44,802 nucleotides of DNA from Cyanophora paradoxa CCMP329 (GCA_004431415.1 QPMI01000128.1:1-44802); one strand, 5' to 3'; shown: positions 12,111-40,280, counted from the first letter of the stretch. Numbers and translations: made by a program. Notes: generated by a model from the letters alone, not told the origin.

Positions 12111-12146
12111 TGCTTCTTTTACTAAGAAGGAAAGAAAAATAAACCA

Positions 12147-12455: not shown

Positions 12456-12458
12456 TTA

Positions 12459-17882: not shown

Positions 17883-17931
17883 CCCTGCATGCTCTACATA
17901 TAGAGATTTATTAAATTTCAATAAAGTAAAG

Positions 17932-20970: not shown

Positions 20971-22105
20971 TCAGACACCGAATGGGAAACTGTGAATGCC
21001 GTCGTCAAATATTTTCCGTTTGCTATCGAGTTGGTTTAGAGCCACCCTTCTGCTCTCCAAGTCATATAAGTTGTGGTCTTGTCGTTGCTTGTTTCTTACT
21101 GTTACTGTTTTTGTGATGCCTTCAAATAGACATTTCTTAAAATCATCAAAGTGAATTTCTTTCGAAGAAGTCCCCGACATCTTTACTTTTTCGTTGGTCT
21201 CAGTTCTGAAAGCGTAAAGTTTCGATCTCAGACCTACATACTCTACGATCTTTGCATTTGGAAACTCATTTTTATATTTACCAGGAACCATGCGATTCTC
21301 GAAATTCATTAGAGGATGTGATTTATCATAGTTACTTCTATCGAGATGTTCACCTATCTCTTTCATATCTTCGTTGAGATTCTTGGTTTTCAGGAACAAA
21401 CAAAACGAATCGGTATCGTGAAACAGTAGTTTAGCTGAGTCCCATTTCTTCCTGATCACATCATAGAAGAATTGATAATTATGTAGTTTCGCGAAATCCA
21501 AAACGAAAGCGCCAATTGCTACGGGTTTATCTAAGTTTACATGCTTCGAATACATTTCAAACGCTATCGCATTTTCGTTTATTACATTGGTTGCCTTGAT
21601 AAGAGGACTTGCTGCGTATTTCTTACACAATTTCTCACTATTAGCGATCTTGACAGTTGAGCGACCCCTACAAGATTCCAAGCATTTTCCATAAATTGCA
21701 TTGTTCATTAGTTTGAAAAAGTCACTTTCAAAAGTGTTAGTTGATTCGTGGCGTAGAAGAGTATTTAGACCAATATAAGATTTCATGAATGGTGAGGTTG
21801 CAAATGAGAGAACTTTATGTATCTTAGTAATAATTACACCTTTTTCGACGATGTAGTTAAGAAGAGGTCGAGCAATCACGTACTTATATTTAGGTGTAAA
21901 AGACGCTGTGAGTTTGGGGTCTTTGCTAATCTTCTCACCTGTCATTTCTAAAAGTTTTCGTTGATAATCTCCGAGCATATCTTTGGTAATCAATTCTTTA
22001 TTCACAATGAGTGGGAAATCATAATGATCTTCAAGGAATGTCGGGTATTCAAGATCAACTTCAATAAATGCACTTCGCCCTTCAACCTCTTTAAGTGCCT
22101 CTGTG
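20971..22105 (-). pseudogene. 3' half of the outer element's protein-primed family B DNA polymerase, disrupted by insertion
   Basis: FIEVDLEYP, motif B FFKLMNNAIYGKCLE, motif C FHDTDSF, GKYKNEF and VGLRSKLYAF. The reading frame is cut at the TSD at 22101-22105. Confidence 0.93.
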
Positions 22106-22495
22106 AGCTCAGCTTGGCGCGGTGTCTCCAACAATTAAATCCGCGGATCCTTACCATTCACCGTAACAGCACCGAATCTAATCGAAAATCACCGTAAGGC
22201 TCAGTGTCACGATCGATAATTTCGGTTTCACGACCGATCTTCATCGATTCACTCGATCCAATTCATCTTTTTATGCGCGGTGTCTCCCACAATTACGCAC
22301 GATTTCGCACGATACACAGTGAGACGACCACTGCACGATCGATAACCGCACCATTTACCGTCGTAAAGAGAATTCGTCTTTTTTCGCGCGGTGACTTCGT
22401 TAAGTCGGCAGAATGCCTCTTCTCCCACGATTCACAGTAACTTTTAACCAAAAGTTTAATAAAAATAAATCATGCACGACTTCTTAGATTATACT
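22106..22495 (+). repeat. Left terminal inverted repeat of the inner PLV
   Basis: Reverse complement of 39901-40280; starts with AG. Confidence 0.95.
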
Positions 22496-23522
22496 TTCTT
22501 CTCACAACATTACTTCGGTTCGGTTTGATTCCTTCTTTCTTCAACCTTTGATTAACTGTATTCGTTTTCTTTACTCTTGTTATTCGTTTTTGCGATGGAA
22601 TCTTAATGACTTCATTAACTTTCACTTTCTGTAATTCTTGCTTCTTGAAGCGTCGCTTAACTTCCTTCTCGTCCCCATCCATATCTTCCAACACTTTGAA
22701 TCTATTCCCATCAGACCTTCCAACTTTATAAACCTTTTGACTAAACCTCGCACCTTCCTTTTCAAATGCACTCTTCTTACCTTCTAACACTCGAACAGTA
22801 TCACCTGGTTTAACATCGACTCTCTCATTTCCCTTCACGTTATTATTGTGAACAGTATCCCGAAGGTAAATATATAGTTGTTTATCTTCGTTAGAATACA
22901 CTGTATTTGGTGAATCATTCTTCAAGGCACTATGGGGTGAATTGTTATAAATGGCGAGAACTTCGGTCACTAAATCAATCCACTTACTTGTCCCATTCGA
23001 TGTCATTGCCTTCCGTAAATACTGCTTGAAAGTCCTGGTGAATCGATCGATAATTCCGAGTTTATCACCAACTGTAATGTGTTCATCCTTAGCGACATCG
23101 GTATACAATCGCACCCCATGTTCTCCACACCAATTGCGATACATTGCGCTGGAAAACTCATTATCTCCCGATAGAGCAGCAACTTTACCTGCGTCCTGTT
23201 TGAATCGATTTAGAATACTTGGGATGTTCTCGTTCGTTTTGAAAGGATACACGAACGCCTTTCTGCTCAGAATATCAACAAAACTAATCATCTTAAAAAT
23301 ACCATTGTTTGCAGTTTGAAATCCTTTGAAATACATAATATCTACTTGGAAGGAACGTGGTTTCGCAACAATCCTTAGGAATGATTTAGGCTTTTTCGGT
23401 TTCTTGAATATCTGATGCACTTCTGAGTTTAAAAAGCGTTTTTTCAATTCTTCCTCATCAAAGTTTACTTTATCATTAATCAATTTCTGGCGATACTTCT
23501 TGTAAGATAACACGTTATCCAT
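22470..23522 (-). CDS. rve-type integrase of the inner PLV
   Basis: FQVDIMY, FVDILSRKAFVYP, LSGDNEF, LGIIDRFTRTFK (third acidic residue is D), YNNSPHSAL. Confidence 0.9.
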   Translation of the reverse strand: MDNVLSYKKYRQKLINDKVNFDEEELKKRFLNSEVHQIFKKPKKPKSFLRIVAKPRSFQVDIMYFKGFQTANNGIFKMISFVDILSRKAFVYPFKTNENIPSILNRFKQDAGKVAALSGDNEFSSAMYRNWCGEHGVRLYTDVAKDEHITVGDKLGIIDRFTRTFKQYLRKAMTSNGTSKWIDLVTEVLAIYNNSPHSALKNDSPNTVYSNEDKQLYIYLRDTVHNNNVKGNERVDVKPGDTVRVLEGKKSAFEKEGARFSQKVYKVGRSDGNRFKVLEDMDGDEKEVKRRFKKQELQKVKVNEVIKIPSQKRITRVKKTNTVNQRLKKEGIKPNRSNVVRRKYNLRSRA

Positions 23523-26500
23523 TATTGAGCAGCGCAGTTACATCTAATATGTGACAGGAAACAATTTTTGGTAGTATGGGGCAACGCATTATTGATTCGA
23601 TCAATAGAAATTACGTTCAGATCGAAGTCCATACCTCCATAACAACGAAGACAGTGACCATATTGCTTGCCGTAGCGTTTCTTGCACCACTCCCAATTGA
23701 CATAGTCCTTCTCATCAAACGGTCTGTTTGCCTTCTTGTCTTGCTCCTTGTACTGCTCAATTCTCTCGCTGAACTTCTTCATGTTCACAACGTGTTCTGC
23801 CCACTCATACCCATCATGGTAAATCTTCACACGACTTAGCTCGGTAGTTCGGGTGATTGCTGTGTAGAACCATTCCGCAGAAACGAAGGGCGCACCCGCT
23901 TCATAGATCACCACATTACCGCTCTTGCAATCGATTGTATCACCCTGAATCACGTGACAGGTATAAGCGTAAGGAAGTGAGAAATATCTCATTGCAGGTG
24001 GGTCTAATGTGATCACTTCCTTTGTAGCGATATCTTCGATGACGAACTCTTTGTCGTCATATGCCTTGATGGTGTACGTAAATCCATTGTGAATAGTCAC
24101 ACCATTTTTCACGATCCTTTGCTTTGCGACAATCTCCACACCTTTCGCGAAAATCGGGACATCTTCCCCGTAGTTCAATTTATGCAATTGCAGGTTGACT
24201 TCCGCAGCCTTGCGATTGGTGTACACTATCGCCCTGTCATCTTTCCCCAAAGTATCGACCGTTTCAAACCTGTACTTTTTAATGACATCGGGAACACTCA
24301 ACCGATTCTCGAAGAGATCCTTTTTTATTTCCTCGACAGTATCACGGTCTTCATGGGTCTTGTGACGCTTATTAACCTTCAATACTAACTCGTTCTTGAA
24401 CAGGAGACGCAGAATGTATGAGTAGTATTCTTTTTGGTCAACCGTCATATCCTGAATGGGCGGATTTTGGTGTGGGTCACCTGTGGCGATGTAGACCTTA
24501 TCCGGGAACAACACTTCCATAATGTATGCAAGCGCCGCCAATTCTGGAACTGTGAATTGACAGATTTCGTCGATAACGATGCAGTCGTACTCAACCAATC
24601 CGGAAGCATTACCACCCACAATCTCGTCCATGTTTGAATCGTCGACTTTTAGATGCAGAGCATCGTAGATGGTCTTAACATTTGCAAGACCATGTTGTAA
24701 CTTCATGTCGCGAATCCTCTTATTTGTCGGAACAATGAACAGGGGATTTTGGAAACGCTTACCAAACTGAACACCAATGTAGGTCTTTCCCACTCCTGGA
24801 ACGACACCTAATATAATCCATCGCTTCTGAGCAGCAAGAGTTTCGCAAATTGCCGTGGTATTATACTCATCAACTACCGAGTAAATAATGTGATTCGACT
24901 TCTCTAATTGCACGAAGTTCTCCTCGCGCTCCAATTTCCCGTAGTGAATGCGCTTGAAATTAAACTCCTTATTGTTCCCGATATACTTCTTTGTGAAATT
25001 GGGGCAATGCTTGATGCTGAATTCACCAATGTTGTCGTAGCTGTGACGGTCGAAACTCACAAGAGGGATCGGATCACAAGAGGTCGTGTAGACACAATCA
25101 GTATTAACAGAGACTGGATTAAGTCCTTTCTTACTGAGTTCGATGCACTTCTCGTATAGATTCATTCTCATAAGAGAATACATGAGATTGTGAAACGGTA
25201 GGAACCCATCAGTAAGAAACTTTTCTGCTACTTGATTCACATAGTAGATGCACGGTTCTGTGATTTCTTCCTCTGCGATGACGTAACAGGTTGGGTCATA
25301 CGATGCTGGATCTTTACCAAACACGTATGGTTTTACCTCTCCGCCATATTGCTTTTGGAATTCAATCGCATCGTCACGCTTGTTAAAGATCGTGGTCTTT
25401 ACTTTGTGGTTCTTCTGTTTTCCTATTTGCCCAATATTAGCAACAAGCATCTGCTTCTTGTCTGTTGGGTCAAGGTCACTCTCCATGATTTGCTTAATCA
25501 CGTCGCCTGCATAGTTTGGAACCAATTTATATGGTCGAAGAACCCCCTTAATCGTAATGTCCTCTTTCAGATCCTCGTAGTATTTTTTGAGAACCATACC
25601 TGGGATGACATTGTACCGTGAATCGATAAGCATGCGCTTATAACGGTCGTAGATGTTCAGTTCGTATTTCGTTCCATCTGCATTTTTCATCGGTTTGAAA
25701 TACTTTGATTTCAACTGAACGTAGTAGAAGTTGTACTTTTCGATTTCCTCAGCAGAAGTGATCGTGGTCTTCTGGAAATTATCGAATTTACTAATTACTG
25801 GGACGAATTCAATCTGTTTTGCAATAATTGCAGGATAGGCTTTGCACATGTCGTGTTCGTAGATATTCTCGCTCCACCCAATCTCATCAATGGTCTCCTT
25901 CTCCAAATCAAAGAACCCGCGCAGGGCAGTCTGTGAACCAATGCGGAACGCTGTTGAAGTTTGGTCATTGTACGTACTCTTGTTAGCATTGTTAACAAGA
26001 CTCAGATACATTTTCAGATTGAGCCGCTCGAATTTCTCACGATATTCAGCGTCCTTGAATTTCACCGCATAAGCAGTCTCCACATCCGTATCTGAACCGG
26101 GTGGGGTAACCGTTATGCTCTTCTCACCGTATGTGAAATGAATGTGTGTAATCTTCCGCATTGGGGAGAATCCCGCGTGAACCTGGTAGTTCACATCCAC
26201 AATGAACTCTTTCAGAAGATCGTCCAAGAACCCACTGTAACAGATTGAAATTTTACTCTGGCTCTTCATCTCCTCCGAATTGATGATCTTCACGATATCC
26301 TCAGGAGTTGCAGCAAATTCTCGATGTTTTCTTTGCTTGATAATCTTGAATCGCGACCCCACCGTAAGATTCGTGTCAGAGTTTGACTTCGATCCGTTGA
26401 AAGAGTGAGTGAGAGATTTGAGATTCTCGTTCAGAAGGTATAAGTGACCATTTTCGATTTTCACATAGGCGACCGATGGTGTGAGGTGGGTATTCCTCGT

Positions 26501-27607
26501 TTTCGGTTTGAAAGTGAGTTCAGGTATCTCGGTCTTGTCGTCTTTGTCGATGGTAACCATCCCGATACGGTAAGTTGACAGAACCTTTTCTACAATTTCC
26601 TCAAATGTAAAGCCCCAATCATCACCTTCTACTGGGTCACGTCCACGAATCATTTTGAATATACCGTTGTGGCTCCAATCAACCGATTTATACTTGCCTT
26701 TGGAATTGGCTTTCTGGAACGCTTGGGCGAAGTGCATAACAAGAACATCAGGAACGCAGCGACCTACTTTGAAGTTGTCACCTCGTACGAAGAGTTCCCC
26801 CAATGTCTTTGCTTGTGGGTTGGTCTCAGTTCGCAGATACTTGGAGATGATCATTGGGGCATGTTGCGAATCCCGTAGTGCTTGCTGTTGTCTCGGTACA
26901 TACGCTTGATTGTCTGTGGTAATGATTCGCTCGAATGTGACAATATCCCCGTAAATATCATTTTGAACTTTAACGAAGAATCGGAAATCACGATTGCCCA
27001 CATTCGCTTGTGCGATCGCTAACATGAACTCTTGGATATTCTCAACACCCATCAGAGCTGGGAAGGTATTGAACGTGTTTTTGATTTTGTCAAGTGACTT
27101 CAACAGATCCTCTTTCGAACACTGAATCGCGAGAGGTTGGTTAGTGCTTGTCTTCTTCATCTCGAAGTAGAACATACCGCCATCCTCAACCACATTGGAA
27201 TTAGCGGGCAGGTTCGGGATCTTATCGGGTGCGATATCCTTGTAAACTCGGACATGCAGAGTTACCATATTTCCGGGTGAGTTCTGGATATACTCGCGAA
27301 GGTTATCCATCATTTCTTGGAAGGGATCCCGACGCTTGCGCTTCTCACGCTTCTCGATATTCTTAGCCGTCCTCTCCGCCTTTGCCTCCTTCTTCTGTTG
27401 CTTACGCTCAAACCGCTGATACAGCGAACGATTGATTTCCCTAATGATATCATCCAACTTGTCCTCTCGTGGTCGCTGGTAAGTCACCACATCAAGAAAC
27501 TCTTCAAACTTCTCACGGTTGATCTTGTCGTCTACAAACGCTTGCATAGACTTCGCCACAATCTCTTGCTTCTTCTTTCTCAGCCTTAAATTCGATGCTC
27601 GCGGCAT
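23522..27607 (-). CDS. Fusion of a divergent PolB, an SF1 (RecD/Pif1-like) helicase and a C-terminal HNH-like zinc domain (1361 aa)
   Basis: Pol motifs: A EHDMCKAYP, B KQMLVANIGQIGK, C SVNTDCVY. Helicase motifs: GVVPGVGKT, IVIDEI, ATGDPHQNPP, YAYTCHVIQGDT, YTAITR. C-terminus CLRC...SIDRINNALPHTTKNCFLSHIRCN. Confidence 0.88.
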   Translation of the reverse strand: MPRASNLRLRKKKQEIVAKSMQAFVDDKINREKFEEFLDVVTYQRPREDKLDDIIREINRSLYQRFERKQQKKEAKAERTAKNIEKREKRKRRDPFQEMMDNLREYIQNSPGNMVTLHVRVYKDIAPDKIPNLPANSNVVEDGGMFYFEMKKTSTNQPLAIQCSKEDLLKSLDKIKNTFNTFPALMGVENIQEFMLAIAQANVGNRDFRFFVKVQNDIYGDIVTFERIITTDNQAYVPRQQQALRDSQHAPMIISKYLRTETNPQAKTLGELFVRGDNFKVGRCVPDVLVMHFAQAFQKANSKGKYKSVDWSHNGIFKMIRGRDPVEGDDWGFTFEEIVEKVLSTYRIGMVTIDKDDKTEIPELTFKPKTRNTHLTPSVAYVKIENGHLYLLNENLKSLTHSFNGSKSNSDTNLTVGSRFKIIKQRKHREFAATPEDIVKIINSEEMKSQSKISICYSGFLDDLLKEFIVDVNYQVHAGFSPMRKITHIHFTYGEKSITVTPPGSDTDVETAYAVKFKDAEYREKFERLNLKMYLSLVNNANKSTYNDQTSTAFRIGSQTALRGFFDLEKETIDEIGWSENIYEHDMCKAYPAIIAKQIEFVPVISKFDNFQKTTITSAEEIEKYNFYYVQLKSKYFKPMKNADGTKYELNIYDRYKRMLIDSRYNVIPGMVLKKYYEDLKEDITIKGVLRPYKLVPNYAGDVIKQIMESDLDPTDKKQMLVANIGQIGKQKNHKVKTTIFNKRDDAIEFQKQYGGEVKPYVFGKDPASYDPTCYVIAEEEITEPCIYYVNQVAEKFLTDGFLPFHNLMYSLMRMNLYEKCIELSKKGLNPVSVNTDCVYTTSCDPIPLVSFDRHSYDNIGEFSIKHCPNFTKKYIGNNKEFNFKRIHYGKLEREENFVQLEKSNHIIYSVVDEYNTTAICETLAAQKRWIILGVVPGVGKTYIGVQFGKRFQNPLFIVPTNKRIRDMKLQHGLANVKTIYDALHLKVDDSNMDEIVGGNASGLVEYDCIVIDEICQFTVPELAALAYIMEVLFPDKVYIATGDPHQNPPIQDMTVDQKEYYSYILRLLFKNELVLKVNKRHKTHEDRDTVEEIKKDLFENRLSVPDVIKKYRFETVDTLGKDDRAIVYTNRKAAEVNLQLHKLNYGEDVPIFAKGVEIVAKQRIVKNGVTIHNGFTYTIKAYDDKEFVIEDIATKEVITLDPPAMRYFSLPYAYTCHVIQGDTIDCKSGNVVIYEAGAPFVSAEWFYTAITRTTELSRVKIYHDGYEWAEHVVNMKKFSERIEQYKEQDKKANRPFDEKDYVNWEWCKKRYGKQYGHCLRCYGGMDFDLNVISIDRINNALPHTTKNCFLSHIRCNCAAQ

Positions 27608-27843
27608 ATTGCTTGTTTCCTATTCTATACAAATAAATTATTTCTTTAAGTGATTTTCATAGCAAGACGTCATTTTTTGACCAATTGGGAAAATCAACCG
27701 GTCAAGCAAATTATAAAAATAAGGAAAGGGTCGACCATCATTCGATGGCTCTAAAAATAACTCGAATGGGTGTGTTTATCTTTTTAAAGCGCGTTTACCG
27801 CGATTTCGTCTTTCTCAGAGCAAGCGCGCCAAGAAAAACGAGA

Positions 27844-28098
27844 TTAGAAGTAAATGGATGGGCGTCCACGATTAGAATAGGGAACACCATACAGATACTT
27901 GATGTAGCACACAGCGTTAGCGGTGTACTGGCGTTGTGAACTTTCCATGATTTTCATTGCCCGGTAACATTCATCAGAATTGTAAATCTCAGTCATTTGT
28001 TTGGAGAGTTTGGTACTATACTTCTTCAAATACTCCCGTCCTTTCTCGGTCTTGCGGTAGCGGTAAATGGCGCGTTTCTGGGCTTCGCTGATCGGCAT
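27844..28098 (-). CDS. Small basic protein, probably DNA-binding
   Basis: MPISEAQKRAIYRYRKTEKGREYLKKY; flanked by AT-rich intergenic DNA. Confidence 0.6.
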   Translation of the reverse strand: MPISEAQKRAIYRYRKTEKGREYLKKYSTKLSKQMTEIYNSDECYRAMKIMESSQRQYTANAVCYIKYLYGVPYSNRGRPSIYF

Positions 28099-28423
28099 TC
28101 TCTCCTTGTTCCTCTTCTGATATATAGCAAGAAATCTTTAAATCCTTTTTGTTATTGGTATATACCTTTTTCAGGAACATCGTCATTTTTTGCGCATCAA
28201 TGCAAGAAGATGCCGGAAAAATAATTCGAAGGTCACCCCTTCAAGTTTCTACGAATGAACCCCGCAGAACAGGTGATTTTAAAGCGTGATCATGGATATC
28301 ACAACTTTTCTACAACGCCACTTATAAAAATAAGTAAACGTGAGCGCAAACTCTCGGAATGGATGTTTAGCGCTATTCTTTAAAGAGATTATTTTAGCGT
28401 GAGAATGATGCGTGAGCCGTCGC

Positions 28424-29188
28424 TTAACGACGGTAGCCTGGACGAATGCCCAACTTAGCGAACCCCGAAACCATCGGCGCCGCATTGGAAATCGAGTTAA
28501 GTGGGTCAGATTGCGATGTAGCCACCCTCAGGATTGATTTATTAAGCACCGGCAAATCGGTTTTGTTCGATTCCTGATAATCGATAGTCTTAGCGATTAA
28601 TTCAGTCGGTGATTCCTTGACAACCTTAATGGGATCAGGTAGCACATCAAAAGTAACTTCGGGTTTCTTCTCTACCTTCTCTTTGGTTATAGGTTGCTCT
28701 TTGATCTTCTTCTCTTTTTGTGTCTCATCGGCGATTCCCTCAATGAGACTTTTAGCGTGTTGGTATGTGATCGTTTTTAGACCGCCTGTTACCGCTCTAA
28801 TAAAGTAACGGTTGCGGTGGTCTTTCTCAGAATAGGTTGAGTATAGACGTTCACCGCCATCGAGGAGTTTAAGAAGGGTCGACGATGTCGCTACCTTCTC
28901 AGTGGTCGATGATTTGAACTGACCCTTTTTAATTCCGCGCTTTGCACCGGGCATACGATTAAGCGGGACTTGATTAACAAGGGCGTTATCATCATGCACA
29001 TCTTTTGTTGATGCTTGTGTATATTGGTTTCTGTCTTTGTGAACGTCACGATCAATGTCACCATTACCATACGCTGCAACACCCTTGGATTTCTTGTACC
29101 AATTCCTTCCTTTCATTTCACCATCGCCAACGTCCGCTTCCACCGCTGGTTTGGCTAAGAAATTCTTAGGTTGAGTCTTGCGAGGCAT
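28424..29188 (-). CDS. Lysine-rich hypothetical protein (possible core protein)
   Basis: ~254-aa ORF starting MPRKTQPK, directly downstream of the penton gene. Confidence 0.6.
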   Translation of the reverse strand: MPRKTQPKNFLAKPAVEADVGDGEMKGRNWYKKSKGVAAYGNGDIDRDVHKDRNQYTQASTKDVHDDNALVNQVPLNRMPGAKRGIKKGQFKSSTTEKVATSSTLLKLLDGGERLYSTYSEKDHRNRYFIRAVTGGLKTITYQHAKSLIEGIADETQKEKKIKEQPITKEKVEKKPEVTFDVLPDPIKVVKESPTELIAKTIDYQESNKTDLPVLNKSILRVATSQSDPLNSISNAAPMVSGFAKLGIRPGYRR

Positions 29189-29220
29189 TTGAAATAACAC
29201 AACAAAAATAATTTACAAAA

Positions 29221-30123
29221 TTACATATTACGGGAGAACGGCAAGTAAACGCCTTCTAACTCTTTTATGACGTTTTTCAATGCCTTCTTTGTCAGATCCT
29301 TGTCATCTTGTGTTATCAGTTCAAGAGTCATCGACCAATCAGTGGTAATATCGGTTTCTACACCATTCCAATACGTGAGACGCACTTTCAGTGTTTCAAC
29401 TTCTACTTCCCCATTCTGCTCATGCAAGATCATAGAGTTATTCGATGAATCATATTTCAGAAGACTACCTACCGTTTGGTCGATCTCAATTTTAGCAAGC
29501 GCTTTATCGTCGCTGGTGTTCTTGCTTACGTAATTGCCTTTGAAGGGGTCAACATGTAGAAGGATGTAAGAATTGAACAGAAGATCAAGTGGTATTACGC
29601 TATCGACGTAATGGTTGTAAGTGATTGAACCAATCTCAACTGGCGCATCAAGTGGAGCGGAAGCATAACCATTTTCCGAACTTGCAGGTGTAAGATCAGG
29701 GAAACCAAGGAAGTTCGCTAAGATCCTACTACCAAATCGTAGGTTAAATACTGCATCCGACATGAACCTTAGAGATATGGTAACAGGATCGTATGTCACA
29801 TGGAAATGGCGAGTGTAGGTAGTTCCAACTGCACCATATGACTGTGAGGCGAGTTTTGCATTTAGTAGATTCACCAAACTATCTGTTGTGTATGTACCTT
29901 TCGTAATAATATTACTTCTGGTCTTAATCACATTTGCAGCATCGTAAGTAGATGTAATGAGCGTTCCATTTTCGCTGAGATTGTAGATGTTGTTGAACAT
30001 TTCGAAATTGGTAACGCGACACGCTTTAACCTTCTGGATTGCATGGGGAAGTTTGTAAGTAAAGTTTGTTGGGGTTCCATCATCTCGGTCTCTGGAATCA
30101 ATATTAAGATAATGACGCGTCAT
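29221..30123 (-). CDS. Minor capsid (penton) protein, PLV/virophage type
   Basis: N-terminal YLNIDSRDRD..TPTNFTYKL, middle LANFLGF, YILLHV, and C-terminal LKVRLTYWNG...DWSMTLEL. Confidence 0.85.
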   Translation of the reverse strand: MTRHYLNIDSRDRDDGTPTNFTYKLPHAIQKVKACRVTNFEMFNNIYNLSENGTLITSTYDAANVIKTRSNIITKGTYTTDSLVNLLNAKLASQSYGAVGTTYTRHFHVTYDPVTISLRFMSDAVFNLRFGSRILANFLGFPDLTPASSENGYASAPLDAPVEIGSITYNHYVDSVIPLDLLFNSYILLHVDPFKGNYVSKNTSDDKALAKIEIDQTVGSLLKYDSSNNSMILHEQNGEVEVETLKVRLTYWNGVETDITTDWSMTLELITQDDKDLTKKALKNVIKELEGVYLPFSRNM

Positions 30124-30175
30124 TCTGTTTAATAATGTAAATTAAAAATTTCTTTTCGTATTTTAAACATAAGAC

Positions 30176-31402
30176 ATGTCGCTTGCTGGGACAACTTTAA
30201 AGGAACTCCTCGTTACTCCCGGATCGGATCAAATTTATCTATCTCCCGGTCTTCAAATCGGAACCAACCCCAAGTATAAGCCGTTCCTTGAACAAGTCCG
30301 TCCACGCGGTAATACCTTTGGGTTTAAGACGACCGCTTACTTCGATCTCCCACGCAAGCAACTCCTCAGTGGCGTTTCGCTTTATTTCAAAGTGACCACT
30401 GGTGGTGGTGTTGCTTGCACTCTTCCCAATGGCGGCGCTTCATTCATCAATGAGATCCGCTTCGTACATGGTGGGTTTAAGTACATCATCCCCGGTGATT
30501 GGATTACTGTGAATGCCCTTATTGATACTGATCATTCTACCATGGGTAGTCTGCATGCTTCTCTTGGTTTCTTCAAGGAAATCGAACGTGACAGCACCAA
30601 TGAATCAATGGAGTACATTGTAAGAATTCCCGCGCAATTCTGGGATGATGCCTATTTCCCTCTTTGCGTTCTGGCGGATATGCCCACGATTGAGGTTGAT
30701 TTCCGCGATGTTGGAATAGTCGAAGTCCCTGCTGGTGGATCGGCAATCATTGCAGACTGTTCCCTCATCTGTCAATTCGTTAATATTGCTTCTGCGGAGG
30801 CTGAGACTCTGTTAAAGACGGCAAATGAGCAAGGCGGTATTCGTATCCCTATTACTGAGGTGATCCACAAGAAGACTCGTGCGCTGAAAACTGCCGATGC
30901 TGGGGAAACCGTCGAGGTGACGCTTGCTAATGTTTCTGGTCTGGTTCACAGTGTTCTGATGACGGTACGTGAGGTAAACAAACTCAATACTTACACTCAC
31001 TCTGACTTTTGTGGTCACGTTTCGGATGTTAAAATTGATCAGTTCCAAATCTTCCACAACAACCGTTCGCTCGATATTTCCAACAAACCAATTAGCGGTT
31101 TCCTCTCCGCTATTAATCACATTCCTACTCATTATAAGGGTGTTACAGTTGGTAATGTCTCTTATGGATTTGAGGCTGGTAATGTTTACGGAATTGTTCT
31201 CAGCAAGAGCGGCAAGGATTCCCTCCACAACTCCGTCATGGGATACCAAGATTTCTTCAACTCTTCAAGTTCGTACATGGATCTGACTGTTTCCGGTTGC
31301 ACTGATGCGGCGCCGGTTCAGGTAGATATTTACGCGCTCCGTCACAATGTCATGGTTCTCAATGGCTATAACATTTCCACACTGAAAGTTTCTAACTTCT
31401 AA
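30176..31402 (+). CDS. Double jelly-roll major capsid protein (PLV/NCLDV-like)
   Basis: 408 aa, beta-rich. FGFKTTAYFDLPRKQLLSGVSLYFKV and YIVRIPAQFW...FPLCVL...IEVDF match DJR MCP patterns; VDIYALRHNVM near the C-terminus. Lies between penton and ATPase. Confidence 0.82.
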   Translation: MSLAGTTLKELLVTPGSDQIYLSPGLQIGTNPKYKPFLEQVRPRGNTFGFKTTAYFDLPRKQLLSGVSLYFKVTTGGGVACTLPNGGASFINEIRFVHGGFKYIIPGDWITVNALIDTDHSTMGSLHASLGFFKEIERDSTNESMEYIVRIPAQFWDDAYFPLCVLADMPTIEVDFRDVGIVEVPAGGSAIIADCSLICQFVNIASAEAETLLKTANEQGGIRIPITEVIHKKTRALKTADAGETVEVTLANVSGLVHSVLMTVREVNKLNTYTHSDFCGHVSDVKIDQFQIFHNNRSLDISNKPISGFLSAINHIPTHYKGVTVGNVSYGFEAGNVYGIVLSKSGKDSLHNSVMGYQDFFNSSSSYMDLTVSGCTDAAPVQVDIYALRHNVMVLNGYNISTLKVSNF

Positions 31403-31538
31403 GCGCGGTTTCGCCCGCGCGCAACGACCGAAGGAAGTAAAGTTCTTTTCGTTCTTTAAAGTAGGAAGCCTGCGAATTGCGTATAGGTTAGCGTGTGATT
31501 TTGTTTTTTATCTTATTACTGTAACGGACACACAGTAA

Positions 31539-32261
31539 ATGGATATAGATTTAAACGATATTCCCGAATTCGACCCGGTAAAAACAGCTAAACTCCCTTC
31601 TGGTAAGACAACGTATTGTAAATATCTACTTTATGAACTGCGGGATAAGATCGATCAGATTGTTATATTTAGTTCCACTGCGTTCACTGGTCAATTCAGA
31701 GATATTACGCATCCCGATAACATCTACGAGGAATGGGATGATAATGTAGTAGTGAAACTCATTAGTATGCAAAAGAAACGAATCGAGAACAATGAGAAGC
31801 GTAATAGTTTGGTAATTATTTTAGATGACATGATTGGATCTAATTTGGATATGCATAACTCAGCTGTGTTATCTAAACTGGTAACAAGTGGAAGACATTA
31901 TGGTATAACTGTTATTTTCAATGTCCAACGTATATGCTCTATTTCTACTACAATTCGTCGTAACGTGGAATTCGTGGTATTTTTCAATATTCTTGGGAAC
32001 GAAAAAGAGTTTAACTGTGCATTCGATGAATATAACGGTGGATTGGACAAGAAGACTTATAAAGAACTACATAGACTTTGGGGTTACAATTACCAAACAG
32101 TCATAACTGGACTGCAAGGTTATGATATAAAGACCTATACAGATCGGGCGATTTTAACAGATGATGATATGAAGGCTTTTCGCAAGTTTGTGAAGCGACG
32201 AGCGATAAAAAAGAGAGTATCAATACGAATAAGTAACGAGCCGACAACGATAACGGTGTAG
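31539..32261 (+). CDS. A32/FtsK-HerA family genome-packaging ATPase
   Basis: AKLPSGKTT (Walker A), LVIILDD (Walker B), SGRHYGIT, NVQ, TIRRN. Confidence 0.9.
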   Translation: MDIDLNDIPEFDPVKTAKLPSGKTTYCKYLLYELRDKIDQIVIFSSTAFTGQFRDITHPDNIYEEWDDNVVVKLISMQKKRIENNEKRNSLVIILDDMIGSNLDMHNSAVLSKLVTSGRHYGITVIFNVQRICSISTTIRRNVEFVVFFNILGNEKEFNCAFDEYNGGLDKKTYKELHRLWGYNYQTVITGLQGYDIKTYTDRAILTDDDMKAFRKFVKRRAIKKRVSIRISNEPTTITV

Positions 32262-32700: not shown

Positions 32701-32980
32701 TGTCGCATCCGACATTATAGCGGATGCTCATTTATATGTGAGCCGCTAGGGCTCTAGATCACGTCAGCCTTCGAGCTGCTGGACCGACGGCGCCTAGGCT
32801 AGTTAGAGCGCCGCGGTCACTTGTATTCGTGTCGGGGTACGCCGTATCTGGACGGGTACACCCAGTGAGTTGGATCTTAGCGACGACAGCAGTGACACTC
32901 GCCATTCCCCGCCCTGCCGAGCTTGCACTCCGCACGGGCTTCCGCGCGCACGATTAGACACACTAATCTCGCACGCGACA
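32701..32980 (+). repeat. 5' LTR (280 bp)
   Basis: TG...CA ends with a 6-bp terminal inverted repeat; direct copy at 39387-39667. Confidence 0.95.
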
Positions 32981-32998
32981 GGCGCCACTGCCGGGAAT
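32981..32998 (+). promoter_or_regulatory. Primer-binding site, probably tRNA-Asp type
   Basis: GGCGCCACTGCCGGGAAT immediately after the LTR. It resembles the tRNA-Asp PBS TGGCGCCGTTGCCGGGGA of plant Athila elements; the leading T is absent. Confidence 0.7.
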
Positions 32999-34239
32999 TT
33001 GATCGAGCTTGAGCTCTCTTTTACAACGCGCCCCGGCCTCTTCCCCCTCCGTTCCGAAATCCCGTCCGCGGGATCCGAACCGGGGATCTTGGCTCGTAGA
33101 GCAACAGCTCTACCAACTGAGCCAAGAGGGCCGTTCCGATGTGAGACTCGCGTCTCGGCGCCTGGTGCGCCACTGCCGGGAATTTGATCGAGCTTGAGCT
33201 CTCTTTTACAACGCGCCCCCGGCCTCTTCCCCCTCCGTTCCGAAATCCCGTCCGCGGGATCCGAACCGGGGATCTTGGCTCGTAGAGCAACAGCTCTACC
33301 AACTGAGCCAAGAGGGCCGTTCCGATGTGAGACTCGCGTCTCGGCGCCTGGTGCGCCACTGCCGGGAATTTGATCGAGCTTGAGCTCTCTTTTACAACGC
33401 GCCCCCGGCCTCTAAGGGATTTCGGAACGGAGGGGGAAGAGGCCGGGGGCGCGTTGTAAAAGAGAGCTCAAGCTCGATCAAATTCCCGGCAGTGGCGCAC
33501 CAGGCGCCGAGACGCGAGTCTCACATCGGAACGGCCCTCTTGGCTCAGTTGGTAGAGCTGTTGCTCTACGAGCCAAGATCCCCGGTTCGGATCCCGCGGA
33601 CGGGATTTCGGAACGGAGGGGAAGAGGCCGGGGGCGCGTTGTAAAAGAGAGCTCAAGCTCGATCAAATTCCCGCAGTGGCGCACCAGGCGCCGAGACGCG
33701 AGTCTCACATCGGAACGGCCCTCTTGCTCAGTTGGTAGAGCTGTTGCTCTACGAGCCAAGATCCCCGGTTCGGATCCCGCGGACGGGATTTCGGAACGGA
33801 GGGGGAAGAGGCCGGGGGCGCGTTGTAAAAGAGAGCTCAAGCTCGATCAAATTCCCGGCAGTGGCGCACCAGGCGCCGAGACGCGAGTCTCACATCGGAA
33901 CGGCCCTCTTGGCTCAGTTGGTAGAGCTGTTGCTCTACGAGCCAAGATCCCCGGTTCGGATCCCGCGGACGGGATTTCGGAACGGAGGGGGAAGAGGCCG
34001 GGGGCGCGTTGTAAAAGAGAGCTCAAGCTCGATCAAATTCCCGGCAGTGGCGCACCAGGCGCCGAGACGCGAGTCTCACATCGGAACGGCCCTCTTGGCT
34101 CAGTTGGTAGAGCTGTTGCTCTACGAGCCAAGATCCCCGGTTCGGATCCCGCGGACGGGATTTCGGAACGGAGGGGGAAGAGGCCGGGGCGCGTTGTAAA
34201 AGAGAGCTCAAGCTCGATCAAATTCCCGGCAGTGGCGCC
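32982..34239. repeat. Palindromic tandem array of ~186-bp units (~2.3 forward, ~4.4 inverted; switch at ~33413-33416)
   Basis: Near-identical units with a period of 185-186 bp; each holds a PBS copy and a 72-nt tRNA-like segment. Confidence 0.95.
33534..33605 (+). ncRNA. Degenerate tRNA-like module with Pol III box A/box B (other copies: + 33718-33788, 33903-33974, 34089-34160; - 33060-33131, 33246-33317)
   Basis: GCCCTCT-TG-GCTC-AGTTGGTA-GAGC (perfect D arm, box A) ... GGTTCGGATCCC (box B-like) ... GGACGGGA. Acceptor, anticodon and T stems are only partly paired. Confidence 0.65.
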
Positions 34240-34518
34240 TGTCGCGTGCGAGATTAGTGTGTCTAATCGTGCGCGCGGGAAGCCCGTGCGGAGTGCAAGC
34301 TCGGCAGGGCGGGGAATGGCGAGTGTCACTGCTGTCGTCGCTAAGATCCAACTCACTGGGTGTACCCGTCCAGATACGGCGTACCCGACACGAATACAAG
34401 TGACCGCGGCGCTCTAACTAGCCTAGGCGCCGTCGGTCCAGCAGCTCGAAGGCTGACGTGATCTAGAGCCTAGCGGCTCACATATAAATGAGCATCCGCT
34501 ATAATGTCGGATGCGACA
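34240..34518 (-). repeat. Third, inverted copy of the LTR
   Basis: Reverse complement of 32701-32980, with a PBS on one side and a PPT on the other. Confidence 0.95.
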
Positions 34519-34882
34519 ACTCCTCCTCTCGGATCCCGCGTCCGCGCGGGTCTAAATAAATACATATCAACCGGCTACTGCCGGGAATCGAAAAAGGCTC
34601 AACGTCCGTCCGTGGCCGGCAACTGCCGGGAATAGAAAAGACACCAAGTCCGGCTATGTACATGTCCATGCCCGCGTCGACTGCCGGGAATAGAAAAGAC
34701 TGATGCCCGGCAAGTGCCGGCACGACTCCAGCGTGTAGTGCCCAGGGGCGAGGTCCAACTTCGGGCCGGCGGCCCAGGCAACCCGCACGAGGCGAGCGGA
34801 AGGGACGGAAGCCGAGGGGGCCCTGCCCTCATCGCGATTGTGCAGCACGTTAGCTGCAAAGGCACACGCTGCAACAGCAACG
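34519..34882 (-). repeat. Inverted copy of the element's PPT and 3' untranslated region
   Basis: Reverse complement of 39032-39386. Confidence 0.92.
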
Positions 34883-35358
34883 GAGGCGCCATTCTGCCGG
34901 AATCGAACCTTCAAGGGTCGCTGGACTTCCAGGCTCTGCCCGCGCCGCGCGCCTCGCCGCGCCGCCTCGCATAAGCTTAGAGAGATCCGGGACGAGCTTT
35001 CCGGGCGACCGCCACTTGTGGCGTGCTACGCTGCACACTTCGGCCGCGTCGCCTCTGGGCGGCTGATTGTGCTTCGGAAGTGACTCTAGTGTCCCTCGCG
35101 GGCTTCGGTGCATCCCCAGACCGAAGCGCACGCACGAGCTCTCGCGAGAGTCTCAATCATTGTCTGTGTCCTTCGCCGGTTGCACGCTTCGCGTCGCAAA
35201 CTGTGCCCCGGAGTCTGCCAGCGGCAGTTCTCTGAGTGTCCCTGAGTCGGTTCTCGCACGCCACGAGAAGACCGTGTCCCGGATCTGCAGTGCGCTGCAG
35301 ATCAAATCTTGCGCCCTGGCATTCTGTTCTCGTGGCTATACGCTGCAAAGAGAGCAAT

Positions 35359-36913
35359 ATGTCGAACACTTCTGAACTGATCAGTTCTGAAGTCCGTAGC
35401 CGGCTGTCTGCCCTCGCGCACATCGAGCCCGCCCAGGGCTATGCTGCTGTGCATGTGCAGCAACTCGCTGCTGGCTCCGCTGCGGCGGATGATGATCCCG
35501 TGCGGATCGCATTCCTGCCTGCAAATCCTCGCCTCGCCGATGGCGACCGGTTCCGGAAGGACGTGCGGAACTTCCAGTCGTCCCTGCCGACTAAGTACTT
35601 GTTTGGCCCGATTCTGCCGGTAGCCAGGAGTACTCAAAGTCAGAGGCGCTAGCCGGAGTGATTGTTGGGCGGATCCGCCCCGGAGCTCTCCGCGCTGAGA
35701 TTGAGCGCAAGCGCGACCTCTATGAGGCCTCTGTCACTGCCCTCGAGCATGACCGCACCAGGCTCGCTCGTCTCGAAGCTGTCCGGCAGACCTGCGGTCC
35801 GCCGAGGATGATGCTGCTATCCTCGCGCTGCAGCAGAGCTGCGTGCGTGATCAGGCCTCATCGTGGCCGTGCGCGACTCGTACTTGCGTGCCCCCGGGCT
35901 GCTTGACACGATCACTGCGTGGATTCATGAGACCCGCCCGCACGCGGCCCGCCGGCTCTCACTGAGCCGTACACGGGTGAGGACCCCGCTCGTGGCACGA
36001 CTGGTTCTTGCCCCTCGTACGGCACACGCTGCCGCCGGCCAGCAGTTTGCTGCGTACTACGCGGACTGCCTGCGCACCGCGCTCGAGGCCCGCTCGACGA
36101 GCGAGGACCTGAATATCAGAACCTTGATGTTCGGATGGCCGGGTTCGCCCAGGCGAACGAGCGCACGCTGCGCGAGTTCCTCACGGCGCTGCGGCAGCGC
36201 CTCCTCGCCAATAACGGCGCTATCTCGCCGCTTGAGCTTGACAATATTTTCGTCGAGCAGTGCAAGCGCCACGGCTGCCGCGCCGTGTTCCCGCCTGCGC
36301 TGGCAGCTGCCGATCGCGAGCTGCCCGAGGCAAAACGGACCCGTATCCTGCAGGCACAGTTTGCCGAGGATGAGTCCTCGTCCGCCGGCACCCCTGCCGC
36401 TGCACGAGCCTCGAGCTCCTTGGCCCTGCTGAGCCTCGGATGCAAATTCCACGGCCCAGCCCTCGATTTCTGCACGTGGGTCCTCTTGGCCGTGCAGTCC
36501 CGCTCGCCTGCCGCTGTTGCGGAGGTGCTGCGGCGCATGTCCGAGCTCGGGTACCCGGAGTACCCCCCTCAGACTGCTACGGGTGCTCGGATGACCCCAG
36601 CGTCCCGTTGAGGCGCGACGTCATTGGGCAAATGTGTGCCCCAAGCGCACCCCGTTCGCCCCAGTACGCCCTGGGTCCGCCGCGGCCAGTACTATCGGCA
36701 AAAGCGATCCCAAGAGGATGCTGCCAACAAGCACGAGTACTGGTCCGACGAGGAAACCAGGACCCAGACGAAGTCTGCGGTCGCTGCGGCGAGGCAGGGC
36801 ACCACCACAGTGCCTGCCCGACCCCCCACACGGGCTGCTCGCTCGAGCTCTGCGCTTCCCGCGCCTCTAGCTCAGCGGCTCCACCCGCGCGCCCTGCGGC
36901 GGAGCGTGAGTGA
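35359..36913 (+). CDS. gag: Gag-like protein with CCHC zinc knuckle, frameshifted in this sequence
   Basis: A chain of overlapping + strand ORFs begins at MSNTSELISS and includes helical segments (ERTLREFLTALRQRLL). It ends with CGRCGEAGHHHSAC (CX2CX4HX4C) at 36776-36817 and lies downstream of the PBS. Confidence 0.7.
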
Positions 36914-39374
36914 GCAAGTGCACCAGCTGCACTAGGGTCTGGCTGGCTTGGGCAGCCGCCAGAAAAGCCCTGCTCGTAACCGCGATCCGATTTTCGCGGA
37001 GCCTGGGCCTCCCCTGCGAGAGCCCCATGTGTCGCTGTAATAAGCGGCCCATATACCTGCCTCTGAGCAGGGTGTATATTTGTACATTTGTACATAATTT
37101 CAGACGTCGGGGACGACGTCTTCCGAGAGGAGGAGTGAGCACGGGCATGCTGCACGAGCAGTGCAAGCGCTGCCGCTCGCCTCCCGCCCCGAGGCTTGCT
37201 TGAATCTGTGGCCGCTGGCCAAGATCGAATAGCACTCGCGAAAGAAGAGCCCCAATCGCGTGCTTTCGAGCACCCTGAGCGGCCACGGTGCCCCTCTTTC
37301 CGAGAGGAGGAGTACCTCTTTCGCTGAAGCCTGCGAAGAGGCGCACGGCCGTGCCGCAATTGCGAGCCCTCCTGCTTCCCTCAATTTAGATCCGTGGCCG
37401 GTGGCCGAGATCTGATCTCAACCCCAAGCGGGTACCAGTCTTTCGAGAGGAGGAGTCCCTCCGAGACTCTCTCGTCGAAAGCCTGCGATTTCGCGCGGCG
37501 CACTGCAGTTGCTGAGTGCGGCCATGGGCCTTGCGAAATCCAGAAATTAAAAGTGGCCTCAGGCCTTGCGGTCAGAGCTTCAAAGGCTTGAGCTGATCAT
37601 GAGCCGAGCCGCCAAGCTGCAGCTGCAGCTGGCCCTCGCGGGAGGCTTTGAGCTCGAACCCCCACACTTGAGCGAGCAAGCGGCCTTGCTGCCGTTGCGA
37701 GATGAGACGTGATCACGGAGCCTGAGCTCGGGATGCACCCTCAAGAGAAGCTTGATGCATATATGCTGAGGCACGATGCCCAGCGGCGACGCCTGATGGC
37801 ATGCCGTGAGCTTGACAGGCGGCCCGTGACCCCTGCAAAAATCGTGAGCCTCGACTTGAGCACAAGTGCCCTCGAGAGCTCGAGCCTGAAATAAGTCCTG
37901 GCGCGCCCCAGGCGGCAGCAATAGCAGCTCTGCCATGAGCTTTGCAGTTCTTTGAACTCAAGTCTGGTGACGCCGCCAAGTTGGCGCCAGGCCGCGCGGT
38001 CTGTTCCGGATCATCGGATCCGGACTGAACGTTAGCGGGCGAGGGGCCAGTGCCCCGCCCAAAGACTGGTGAACTGCCGACGAGTTGCATCCAGGCGGCA
38101 CACTGTGGCTGCAGCCGATGGTGCGACGGGCTGCGAGCCCTGCTCACAAGCTAAGAGCTTTGAGACCGGCGGCCAGCCTGTTGAGGCGGCGCCAGAAGGA
38201 CCCCACGATCGTGAGTCTCGTCTCGCATGTGGCCGGCCCGGCCCCAGGCGCGGTCGTGACGGCGGGTGGTTCTGGCCAGGAGCGGCTTGAGAAAGCCGGC
38301 TCCAAGCCGCTCCCGCCCCACACGAGGCGAGACAAGAAGCGGCGATGCTGCCTCCGGCGAGCGAGCACAAGAGGCACCCGTGAAGGGTTGGCTGAGAAGG
38401 CCAAGCGCCGCGAATATCGCGAAAGTCCCGAGCAGAAGTGGTGCGCTGCGGGCGGCCGTTGTCCTTGAGCACAGCTCGGCACGGTGACAGGGCGGAAGAC
38501 CTTGCAAAGACTAGCCGAGCCCTAGGCACGCGCTTGCGTCTGCAGAAGGGTCGGGGCGGCTGTGACGCCGGTTCTGCCCGGGTACAGCGACAGGGATGAC
38601 AAATTCCCCTCCGTGTAAACCTGGTGTGGTACCAGGGCGCCTTGCGTCGGCAGGGTACACGCAGGCGGTCGTGACCGGGTTCCTGCCCCGGGTACGACGA
38701 CGGGGAACAAAAAATACCCCAGCAGGCTCCGCACCAGGACGCTTGGTGGCGGACCGCCTGAGAGGGCCACGTCCCTTTTAATAGATGTCACCCGCGGTCG
38801 GGCAGCGGTACTCCCGTCGCGCAATGGCGTGGAAGGGCACCTTGTGGCGCGTTAGCCTCGCCCTGGAGATTCTAGCTCCACCGCCGTCGGGGGATCCGAT
38901 CCGACGCCGTGATAATGCAGTGAAGGCACGGTGTTGCCTGAGCAGCGGCGCTAGTCGAGCTGCTTAGCCCTAAGTTTTGGACGGGCATTTCGCTGTGGGC
39001 TGCTGAGCGCTGTCGCGAGCGCTGCGCCCCGCGTTGCTGTTGCAGCGGTGCCTTTGCAGCTAACGTGCCTGCACAATCGCGATGAGGGCAGGGCCCCCTC
39101 GGCTTCCGTCCCTTCCGCTCGCTCGTGCGGGTTGCCTGGGCCGCCGCCCGAAGTGGACCTCGCCCCTGGGCACTACGCTGGAGTCTGCCGGCACTTGCCG
39201 GGCATCAGTCTTTTCTATTCCGGCAGTCGACGCCGGGCATGACATGTACATAGCGACTTGGTGTCTTTTCTATTCCCGGCAGTTGCCGGCCACGGACGGA
39301 CGTTGAGCCTTTTTCGATTCCCGGCAGTAGCCGGTTGATATGTATTTATTTAGACCCGCGCGGACGCGGGATCC

Positions 39375-39385
39375 GAGAGGAGGAG
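39375..39385 (+). promoter_or_regulatory. Polypurine tract
   Basis: GAGAGGAGGAG, one base upstream of the 3' LTR. Confidence 0.85.
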
Positions 39386-39386
39386 T

Positions 39387-39667
39387 TGTCGCATCCGACA
39401 TTATAGCGGATGCTCATTTATATGTGAGCCGCTAGGGCTCTAGATCACGTCAGCCTTCGAGCTGCTGGACCGACGGCGCCTAGGCTAGTTAGAGCGCCGC
39501 GGTCACTTGTATTCGTGTCGGGGTACGCCGTATCTGGACGGGTACACCCAGTGAGTTGGATCTTAGCGACGACAGCAGTGACACTCGCCATTCCCCGCCC
39601 TGCCGAGCTTGCACTCCGCACGGGCTTCCCGCGCGCACGATTAGACACACTAATCTCGCACGCGACA
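39387..39667 (+). repeat. 3' LTR (281 bp)
   Basis: Direct copy of the 5' LTR, followed by the TSD CAACT. Confidence 0.95.
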
Positions 39668-39900: not shown

Positions 39901-40280
39901 AGTATAATCTAAGAAGTCGTGCATGATTTATTTTTATTAAACTTTTGGTTAAAGTAACTGTGAATCGTGGGAGAAGAGGCATTCTGCCGACTTAACGAAG
40001 TCACCGCGCGAAAAAAGACGAATTCTTACTGTGTATCAAGCGGAATCGATCGTACAGTGGTCTTCATACTGTGTATCGAGCGGAATCTTGCGGAATTGTG
40101 GGAGACACCCGCATAAAAAGATGAGTTGGATCGAGTGAATCGATGAAGATCGGTCGTGAAACCGAAATTATCGATCGTGACACTGAGCCTTACGGTGATT
40201 TCGATTAGACTCGATGCTGTTACGGTGAATGGTAAGGATCCGCGGATTTAATTGTTGGAGACACCGCGCCAAGCTGAGCT
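39901..40280 (-). repeat. Right terminal inverted repeat of the inner PLV
   Basis: Ends ...GGAGACACCGCGCCAAGCTGAGCT, followed by CTGTG. Confidence 0.95.

Follow-up and report, generated by a model that had tools for sequence, protein, structure and literature searches.

Proteins of 1,000–1,400 amino acids (aa) known as ‘Tlr1-like helicases’ have been described from polinton-like viruses (PLVs), Tlr1 and transpovirons (PMC5499653; Krupovic, Yutin, Koonin 2016), where they are reported to join the polymerisation domain of a family B DNA polymerase of the protein-primed type (pPolB), devoid of the exonuclease, to a C-terminal superfamily 1 (SF1) helicase and, in PLVs, to a terminal HNH domain. 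Such proteins were later modelled as terminal protein, vOTU protease, palm and SF1 helicase (TP-vOTU-palm-S1H), with the Cys and His of the OTU domain conserved and with either HNH or GIY-YIG at the C terminus of the pPolB-S1H proteins (PMC11161782; Krupovic et al. 2024, PNAS). According to an earlier survey, no PLV encodes a capsid maturation protease (PMC4642659; Yutin et al. 2015), and a 2026 preprint (10.64898/2026.06.19.733378) treats polB-SF1 fusions and retrovirus-type (RVE) integrases as usual PLV modules. Here we analyse a stretch of 44,802 nt from Cyanophora paradoxa CCMP329 (GCA_004431415.1, QPMI01000128.1:1-44802; hereafter the window), and consider it likely that the element at 22106-40280 is an integrated PLV of 11,203 bp which is copied by protein-primed synthesis by means of a 1361-aa fusion protein of this kind, in the following called the replicase.

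The element has well-defined ends. Self-BLAST and a repeat finder locate an inverted repeat (22105-22495 against 40281-39901) that is 92.6% identical over 391 columns, its outer ∼180 nt being 98–99% alike; at the level of the sequence itself the repeat begins at 22106 and stops at 40280, and the letters CTGTG flank the element on both sides (Table 1). A duplication of 5 bp has the length expected for a retrovirus-type integrase. From the 18,175 bp spanned by the element, 6,972 bp (a secondary insert with long terminal repeats (LTRs) plus one copy of its own duplication) have to be subtracted to arrive at the net length of 11,203 bp, in accord with the ∼11.2 kb that an earlier note, made from the sequence alone, had given for the element without the LTR insert. 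As stated in that note, there are seven genes: seven intact open reading frames (ORFs) of 84 to 1361 aa, comprising an integrase (350 aa), the replicase, two further ORFs (84 and 254 aa), a pair arranged head to head (300 and 408 aa, the latter a candidate major capsid protein (MCP)), and a packaging ATPase (240 aa). In base composition the window falls into GC-rich parts (1-7000 and 33000-39000; 60–70% GC) and two low-GC blocks (∼8000-32700 and 39700-44802; 35–45% GC), and the PLV lies within the low-GC part, with 40–45% GC compared with ∼65% for the host.

Table 1. Features of the element, of its secondary insert and of the surrounding outer element (positions in the window).
Feature	Position	Strand	Basis or remark
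Target-site duplication, left copy (CTGTG)	22101..22105	.	same five letters at 40281-40285
Left terminal inverted repeat	22106..22495	.	complementary to 39901-40281; overlaps last 26 nt of integrase ORF
RVE (retrovirus-type) integrase, 350 aa	22470..23522	-	ATG overlaps replicase stop by one base
Replicase ORF, 1361 aa	23522-27607	-	ORF call; stop overlaps integrase ATG by one base
Replicase residues ∼1290-1361, CxxC/HNH-like zinc module	23525..23740	-	conserved residues; named HNH in PMC5499653
Replicase residues 917-1258, SF1 (RecD/Dda/Pif1-like) helicase	23834..24859	-	Pfam, family profile
Replicase, family B polymerase core	24968..26074	-	AlphaFold2 (AF2), Foldseek, VIA, BFVD, motif columns
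Replicase residues 252-403, OTU-like cysteine protease (vOTU) domain	26399..26854	-	AF2 model compared with OTU folds
Replicase residues 1-251, variable charged N-terminus, predicted terminal protein	26855..27607	-	terminal protein role from PMC11161782
ORF of 84 aa	27844..28098	-	sub-threshold family matches only
ORF of 254 aa, low complexity	28424..29188	-	ORF call; family searches
300-aa ORF, candidate minor capsid (penton) protein	29221..30123	-	head to head with MCP candidate
408-aa ORF, candidate MCP	30176..31402	+	ESM Atlas features
A32/FtsK-type DNA-packaging ATPase, 240 aa	31539..32261	+	Pfam Pox_A32
LTR-type secondary insert, GC-rich and non-coding, foreign to the virus	32701..39667	+	repeats, duplication, polypurine run
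Right terminal inverted repeat	39901..40280	.	repeat finder, self-BLAST, sequence reading
Target-site duplication, right copy	40281..40285	.	sequence reading
Outer element, 505-aa protein with Peptidase_S74 (endosialidase-chaperone) domain	12459-13976
Outer element, 904-aa repeat protein	14543-17257	-
Outer element, patatin-like lipase with discoidin domain	17932-19491
Outer element, RVE integrase	19488-20540

When searched against a library of representatives at 50% identity, residues 1-900 of the replicase find 166 relatives at E ≤ 0.001, most of the matches listed being 1,250–1,400 aa long and the best having E 2.1e-36 at 29% identity; to the nearest relatives found, the replicase is 29–31% identical. 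SF1 helicase families of Pfam occur at the same relative position in 28 of the 30 relatives scanned, and the fusion is therefore a family rule and not a local accident. By sequence, the replicase is thus a member of the Tlr1-like helicase or pPolB-S1H family of PLVs. The two share the size class of 1,000–1,400 aa and the order of parts, that is, a variable N-terminus, a vOTU domain with Cys and His, a palm (motifs A, B and xTD), an SF1 helicase and, at the C terminus, an HNH or HNH-like module; exonuclease motifs are missing from both, and we find no difference in architecture. One related contig from IMG/VR, L036 (18.8 kb), to which a search with P0013 led, carries more genes, including stand-alone HNH_3/NUMOD4 and GIY-YIG genes; a search with P0003 returned no related locus. 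Alignment of the replicase had also yielded 34 IMG/VR loci as candidate PLV relatives. These were rejected: they match helicase residues ∼1010-1323 only, lie mostly on contigs of 30–150 kb, and have no match to the other six proteins of the element. Palm-only alignments gave nothing in IMG/VR and one contig of 5.8 kb in metagenomes.

An AF2 model of replicase residues 231-905, computed from 51 sequences, reached a predicted local distance difference test score (pLDDT) of 84.5 and a predicted template modelling score of 0.82. All nine PDB matches that Foldseek returned for it at E ≤ 0.001 are phi29 DNA polymerase (E 2.5e-9), to which VIA-align gives Z 15.3 with 369 residues aligned, compared with Z 7–9 over model residues 282-651 for RNA-primed family B polymerases. 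BFVD returned 39 matches at E ≤ 0.001. Of those that bear a name, most are protein-primed polymerases (mavirus, tectivirus and phi29-like pPolBs), and the best is the mavirus polymerase (E 7.5e-10); a few matches are poxvirus or unnamed proteins. The palm motifs are those that the earlier note had read from the ORF, and all were located. Motif A is DMCKAYP (D586), with DxxKAY[PT] as the family form; motif B is KKQMLVANIGQIGK (K718, G726, K730); and motif C is NTD (N835-D837). In an alignment of 41 full-length family members, to which all counts of conservation given here refer, D586, K718, G726 and D837 are invariant. The polymerase region of the earlier note is thus predicted to adopt a phi29-like polymerase fold.

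Two regions lie upstream of the palm. Residues 1-251 have no family match, and relatives align only from about residue 230 onward. For residues 252-403, the OTU domains 4bou, 7y5m and 3by4 (the matches include OTUD3, a tick-virus OTU and yeast OTU1) align to model residues 22-173 over 100–111 residues (VIA), and all 41 family members have the same Cys and His within this stretch (C284 and H388). The earlier note, whose reading of the ORF as palm, SF1 helicase and HNH-like end otherwise holds, had overlooked this internal OTU protease domain. Its statement that exonuclease motifs are missing is borne out by the alignment, which has no acidic column that is invariant or at least 90% conserved between residues 403 and 586. 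Between OTU and palm there is a short beta-alpha-beta stretch (26075-26329; residues ∼427-511, model residues 197-282) in which no acidic residue is conserved. The phi29 alignment spans chain residues 6-558 and begins at model residue 197, and the stretch may, as judged from the model, be a degenerate remnant of an exonuclease domain. A comparison by hhalign of the family profile with the canonical pPolB half of the outer element (see below) was not significant (E 0.78), its best alignment setting motifs B and C in register.

Downstream of the palm follows the SF1 helicase that the earlier note had recognised, with all its motifs intact. Pfam AAA_19 scores above its cut-off (E 1.6e-5; 25.6 bits against 25.1), AAA_30 and UvrD_C_2 remain below theirs, and the family profile matches RecD2 (2.8e-11), Dda (3.5e-11), RecD, TraI and Pif1 among the PDB sequences. 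Walker A reads GVGKT, and G938, G940, K941, E1014, Q1047 and R1253 are invariant. The C-terminal module has the form C1319-x2-C1322 ... H1344 ... N1348 ... C1356, in which these five residues and R1337 are at least 90% conserved. As CxxC ... R ... H ... N ... CxxC it is present in 38 of 41 relatives, the remaining three being truncated there, which fits a fixed function better than repeated invasions by inteins or homing endonucleases. The CxxC/HNH domain claimed in the earlier note therefore stands as a motif pattern kept across relatives, but is not recovered as a Pfam family: the C-terminal 110 aa match no HNH model even at E ≤ 10. Likewise, the family profile has no HNH match among PDB sequences, and a comparison of the module with the L036 HNH_3 protein by hhalign yielded nothing but an unrelated stretch of 27 columns (probability 4.6%). 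The label ‘HNH’ is thus derived from the motif pattern and from the HHpred result reported in PMC5499653. Moreover, at least 90% of the relatives have an Arg (R1337) at the usual place of the first His, with a conserved His seven residues further on, and nuclease activity of the module is therefore uncertain.

Pfam rve matches the integrase below cut-off (E 0.0017; 19 bits against 32.6). A two-sequence profile, built from this integrase and that of the neighbouring outer element, matches the integrase core of prototype foamy virus with E 2e-6; the two integrases are 24.6% identical (E 2e-16), and their D..D..(D/E) positions are aligned. The ATPase matches Pox_A32 (E 4e-12; 46.6 bits against a cut-off of 22.8) and the PHROG terminase large subunit (1.9e-7), and has a homologue in L036 (E 1.5e-8). 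No Ulp1 or adenain protease was detected in the seven ORFs at E ≤ 0.1 or in 106 further stop-to-stop frames of at least 45 aa at E ≤ 0.001, as the earlier note had also concluded, a Pfam search being one that a very divergent maturation protease could escape.

Comparison with other described systems places the element among PLVs. Mavericks (Polintons) resemble it in that they encode an RVE integrase, an A32 ATPase, a replicase derived from pPolB and a capsid module (represented in the element by candidates), and in that they end in inverted repeats and duplicate a short target, but they have a stand-alone pPolB with exonuclease and a Ulp1-type maturation protease, neither of which is found in the element, where the only polymerase is an exonuclease-less palm fused to a helicase. 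The distinction drawn in the earlier note, a PLV rather than a classical Maverick, is thus supported. Mavirus, whose pPolB (TP-vOTU-palm) is the closest named viral structure and is described as likewise devoid of the first motif C Asp and of the greater part of the exonuclease domain (PMC11161782), differs in having no fused helicase or HNH and in encoding a separate S3H helicase and a maturation protease. Mimivirid transpovirons are reported to encode the same pPolB-S1H family (PMC5499653, PMC11161782), yet they are devoid of capsid and packaging genes, in contrast to the element with its A32 ATPase and capsid candidates. Tlr1 of Tetrahymena thermophila, compared here by its published description, likewise combines an RVE integrase with a Tlr1-like helicase, and has genes for a packaging ATPase and for a capsid (PMC4642659, PMC11161782), the latter being candidates in the element; it differs in having more genes and a protein that ends in GIY-YIG instead of HNH (PMC5499653). 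The novelty that the earlier note had seen in the fusion and in the missing maturation protease does not persist. The fusion falls inside a PLV group described in PMC5499653 and PMC11161782, which is, as far as the fusion is concerned, the outcome that the note itself had named, for MCP and fusion together, as speaking against its claim, and the missing protease is a published PLV trait (PMC4642659). Fusion, missing exonuclease, HNH end and missing maturation protease are hence all already in print. What remains unusual is the small size, the divergent candidate capsid gene and the nesting in the pPolB gene of another element.

Sequencing runs of the same organism provide information on further copies. 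In 20 DNA runs from 19 studies, the region 22800-32700 is present at 84–86% of the sampled words, and contigs from four of these runs were compared with the window. In three of the four, contigs join 22106 to 40291 and omit the whole element; the shorter side of this joint measures 27 letters, less than the 31 letters required by the rule of the tool, so that the evidence for a skip of the whole element is weak, though the joint coincides precisely with the ends that the repeats predict. Omission of the LTR insert is seen in contigs of all four runs, which join 32658 to 39679 (shorter side 58), and in contigs of two of them, which join 32700 to 39679. The joints indicate that the organism has, in addition, outer sequence without the PLV and PLV copies that are free of the LTR insert. 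Assembly of the element in those runs gave only pieces of ∼450–1,340 nt, many of them 90–99% alike, which fits a multi-copy family; contig depth is not to be read as copy number. With respect to expression, four runs presumed to be RNA yielded only a few short pieces, 90–95% like the element, and one contig of 268 nt with depth 2, which speaks neither for nor against transcription.

Following the published reading of the pPolB-S1H family, the N-terminal region of the replicase would act as terminal protein and prime synthesis at the inverted-repeat ends, the OTU domain would cut the terminal protein from the polymerase, and the helicase would unwind DNA ahead of the exonuclease-less polymerase. 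The integrase would then insert the linear genome and create the 5-bp duplication, while the candidate 408-aa and 300-aa proteins would form a capsid to be filled by the ATPase.

Several observations weigh against the element being a protein-primed PLV of this kind, and the first two concern the replicase. The structural match to OTU domains is modest (Z 5.8–6.1, that is, around 6 and below the safe level of the tool) and gains its weight through the invariant Cys and His and the published assignment. Furthermore, N835 takes the place of a metal-binding Asp, and polymerase activity is a prediction; in the family, motif C opens with N, K, H, A, R or S and in 0 of 41 relatives with Asp, and NTD is thus a family signature. 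One may then ask whether the polymerase is crippled, or at any rate not protein-primed, with the C-terminal HNH module nicking DNA and the helicase driving strand displacement. A start of replication by nicking had been suggested as a possibility in the earlier note. The replaced Asp would agree with such a scheme, as would the lack of conserved exonuclease residues, the retention of the HNH-like module across the family, which argues for a function and not for a passing homing-endonuclease insertion, and the view first taken in PMC5499653 that the polymerase is inactive. However, the Asp of motif A, the Lys of motif B and the second Asp of motif C are invariant, the fold is nearest to that of protein-primed polymerases, and the OTU domain with its invariant Cys and His is located where polinton pPolBs have a protease predicted to release the terminal protein (PMC11161782). 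The same paper predicts the polymerase of the family to be active and protein-primed, and states that mavirus, pipolins and others without the same Asp are catalytically active. The Arg at the place of the first His of the module also makes nicking itself uncertain. Hence, as the protein retains the OTU Cys and His, both motif A and motif B, and the second motif C Asp, and as the terminal inverted repeats are long, protein-primed replication is better supported than nick-primed replication, which we regard as quite improbable.

The capsid candidates are the next weak point. Language-model features are their sole support: the ESM Atlas relates the 408-aa protein, with a score of 0.98, to all-viral clusters of 394–433 aa, in which 10–18% of the members carry Capsid_N or Capsid_NCLDV, and the 300-aa protein scores 0.98 against unnamed all-viral clusters of 306–378 aa. 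For the 408-aa protein, a word-based protein search found no relative at E ≤ 0.001 or at E ≤ 10, no relative was found in IMG/VR, JGI metagenomes, phage records (tblastn) or PDB sequences, Pfam gave no match at E ≤ 10, and there is no significant similarity to the MCP candidate of L036; its AF2 model from the single sequence (pLDDT 29.7) has no usable fold. The 300-aa protein has no family match in Pfam. Both proteins are capsid candidates. As neither sequence nor structure proves a jelly-roll fold, the element might be pictured as a transposon that lacks a capsid, similar in kind to Tlr1 or a transpoviron, in which the two ORFs encode something other than capsid proteins. This we consider highly improbable: an A32 packaging ATPase is present, which is sensible only together with a capsid, its gene adjoins a divergent pair of ORFs with the usual sizes of MCP and penton, and the Atlas matches of both ORFs are all-viral, some of those of the 408-aa ORF carrying capsid families of nucleocytoplasmic large DNA viruses.

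The third point is size. Published PLVs measure 15–30 kb (PMC4642659, PMC10120064) or 14–40 kb (PMC12220804), and no statement on PLVs of ∼11 kb was found in the published texts searched, among them PMC7805220, PMC10120064, PMC12220804 and 10.64898/2026.06.19.733378; supplements, where smaller PLVs might appear, were outside the search. Being smaller, the element could be a reduced form that needs functions in trans, namely a non-autonomous derivative which has kept core genes and depends on a larger PLV, for example from the family of the outer element, or on a giant virus; in that case it would not represent a ‘minimal’ virus lineage in its own right. Consistently, relatives of the replicase reside on contigs of 12–30 kb, the related L036 (18.8 kb) is richer in genes, the element is nested in another PLV-like element, and its GC content is far from that of the host. 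On the other hand, all seven ORFs are intact and represent replication, integration, packaging and two capsid candidates, the genome contains further copies, and the non-coding stretches (106 frames) hold no gene remnant. Taken together, a reduced derivative appears unlikely. The copy in the window is probably dead, since it carries the LTR insert and since its inverted repeats are only 92.6% alike overall, which likewise speaks against a functional virus at this very position. Weighing these points, we maintain that the element is likely an integrated PLV with protein-primed replication. It would go considerably further to propose that the 11.2-kb form is autonomous, with the smallest complete gene set so far known among the eukaryotic double jelly-roll viruses, and that the HNH-like module nicks the boundaries of the integrated inverted repeats to allow a protein-primed start out of the chromosome. 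To this combination we assign little probability; if it were true, the module would be a working part of the replicase and not a selfish homing endonuclease.

The insert of 6,967 bp, which sits between the ATPase gene and the right terminal inverted repeat, had been correctly recognised in structure in the earlier note. Its direct terminal repeats of 281 nt start with TG and end with CA, a polypurine run immediately precedes the 3' repeat, and the duplicated 5 bp, CAACT, occupy 32696-32700 and 39668-39672. In none of its 82 frames of at least 60 aa was a Pfam family matched (8 searched at E ≤ 0.01 and 74 at E ≤ 1e-4), and it is therefore a non-coding LTR-type element. Classification as a transposon with terminal inverted repeats, considered in view of an end that recurs inverted at 34240-34889, was rejected in favour of the LTR type, to which the direct repeats running TG..CA, the polypurine run and the duplicated 5 bp point. 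The interior contains an inverted copy of the terminal repeat (34240-34521) and, at 32980-34240, a near-perfect palindrome of 186-nt tandem repeats with a tRNA-like stretch, which was called neither by ARAGORN (no tRNA in 32000-40300) nor by Rfam; indeed, Rfam has no match anywhere in the window. That LTR elements insert into PLVs is already on record for elements of cryptophytes and of Cafeteria (PMC12220804). In the non-coding right arm of the PLV, AT-rich palindromic motifs (GTATATATGCACATATATAC-like), adjoined by a GTCAAACGG / CCGGAAATTCC motif, recur to the left and to the right of the insertion site (32355-32420 and 39675-39775); these may be promoter or origin elements. The upstream regions of the seven genes have no 8-mer in common to at least three of them.

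The PLV sits in the pPolB gene of a second, larger virus-like element of low GC content, which occupies 7500-22105 and 40281-44802 and extends beyond the window. On the right flank (40282-40787, minus strand), Pfam DNA_pol_B_2 is matched at its positions 157-259 and ends just past the motif A-like DANNLYG; the left flank (20971-22104, minus strand), which Pfam leaves unscored, has NAIYGK, HDTDS and GKYKNE, which represent motifs B, C and KxY in canonical form. In this copy the reading frame shifts by one base between the halves; in other copies, as we read their bridging contigs, a single frame continues across. As far as the outer element lies within the window, no capsid gene was recognised in it; its other genes are given in Table 1. 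The 904-aa ORF contains tandem repeats that keep the frame, of 57 nt at 15375-15830 and of 66 nt at 16630-16886. A tandem duplication of ∼1.7 kb (40103-41787 and 41813-43507, 98.4% alike) takes in the outer 178 nt of the right inverted repeat of the PLV and ∼1.5 kb of the flanking pPolB gene, and as a result a second PLV end (41813-41993) stands alone; the duplication may have arisen by unequal crossing-over or be an artefact of assembly. G-rich direct repeats with GGTGGGG motifs, 76–83% alike, are located near both ends of the low-GC block (8834-9521 and 44170-44319), and may be ends of the outer element or regulatory repeats.

The picture of PLV replication is left unchanged by the element, and the HNH-like module, kept in nearly all relatives with Arg in place of the first His, is a point that possibly deserves the attention of specialists. 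What the locus provides is a well-bounded, compact PLV that combines an RVE integrase with a replicase of the pPolB-S1H type and resides in a eukaryotic genome rich in GC, with clean ends, a target duplication and evidence of several copies. Seven ORFs in 11.2 kb illustrate how few genes may suffice for such a virus, and the locus shows that PLVs insert into each other and that LTR elements, in turn, insert into PLVs.

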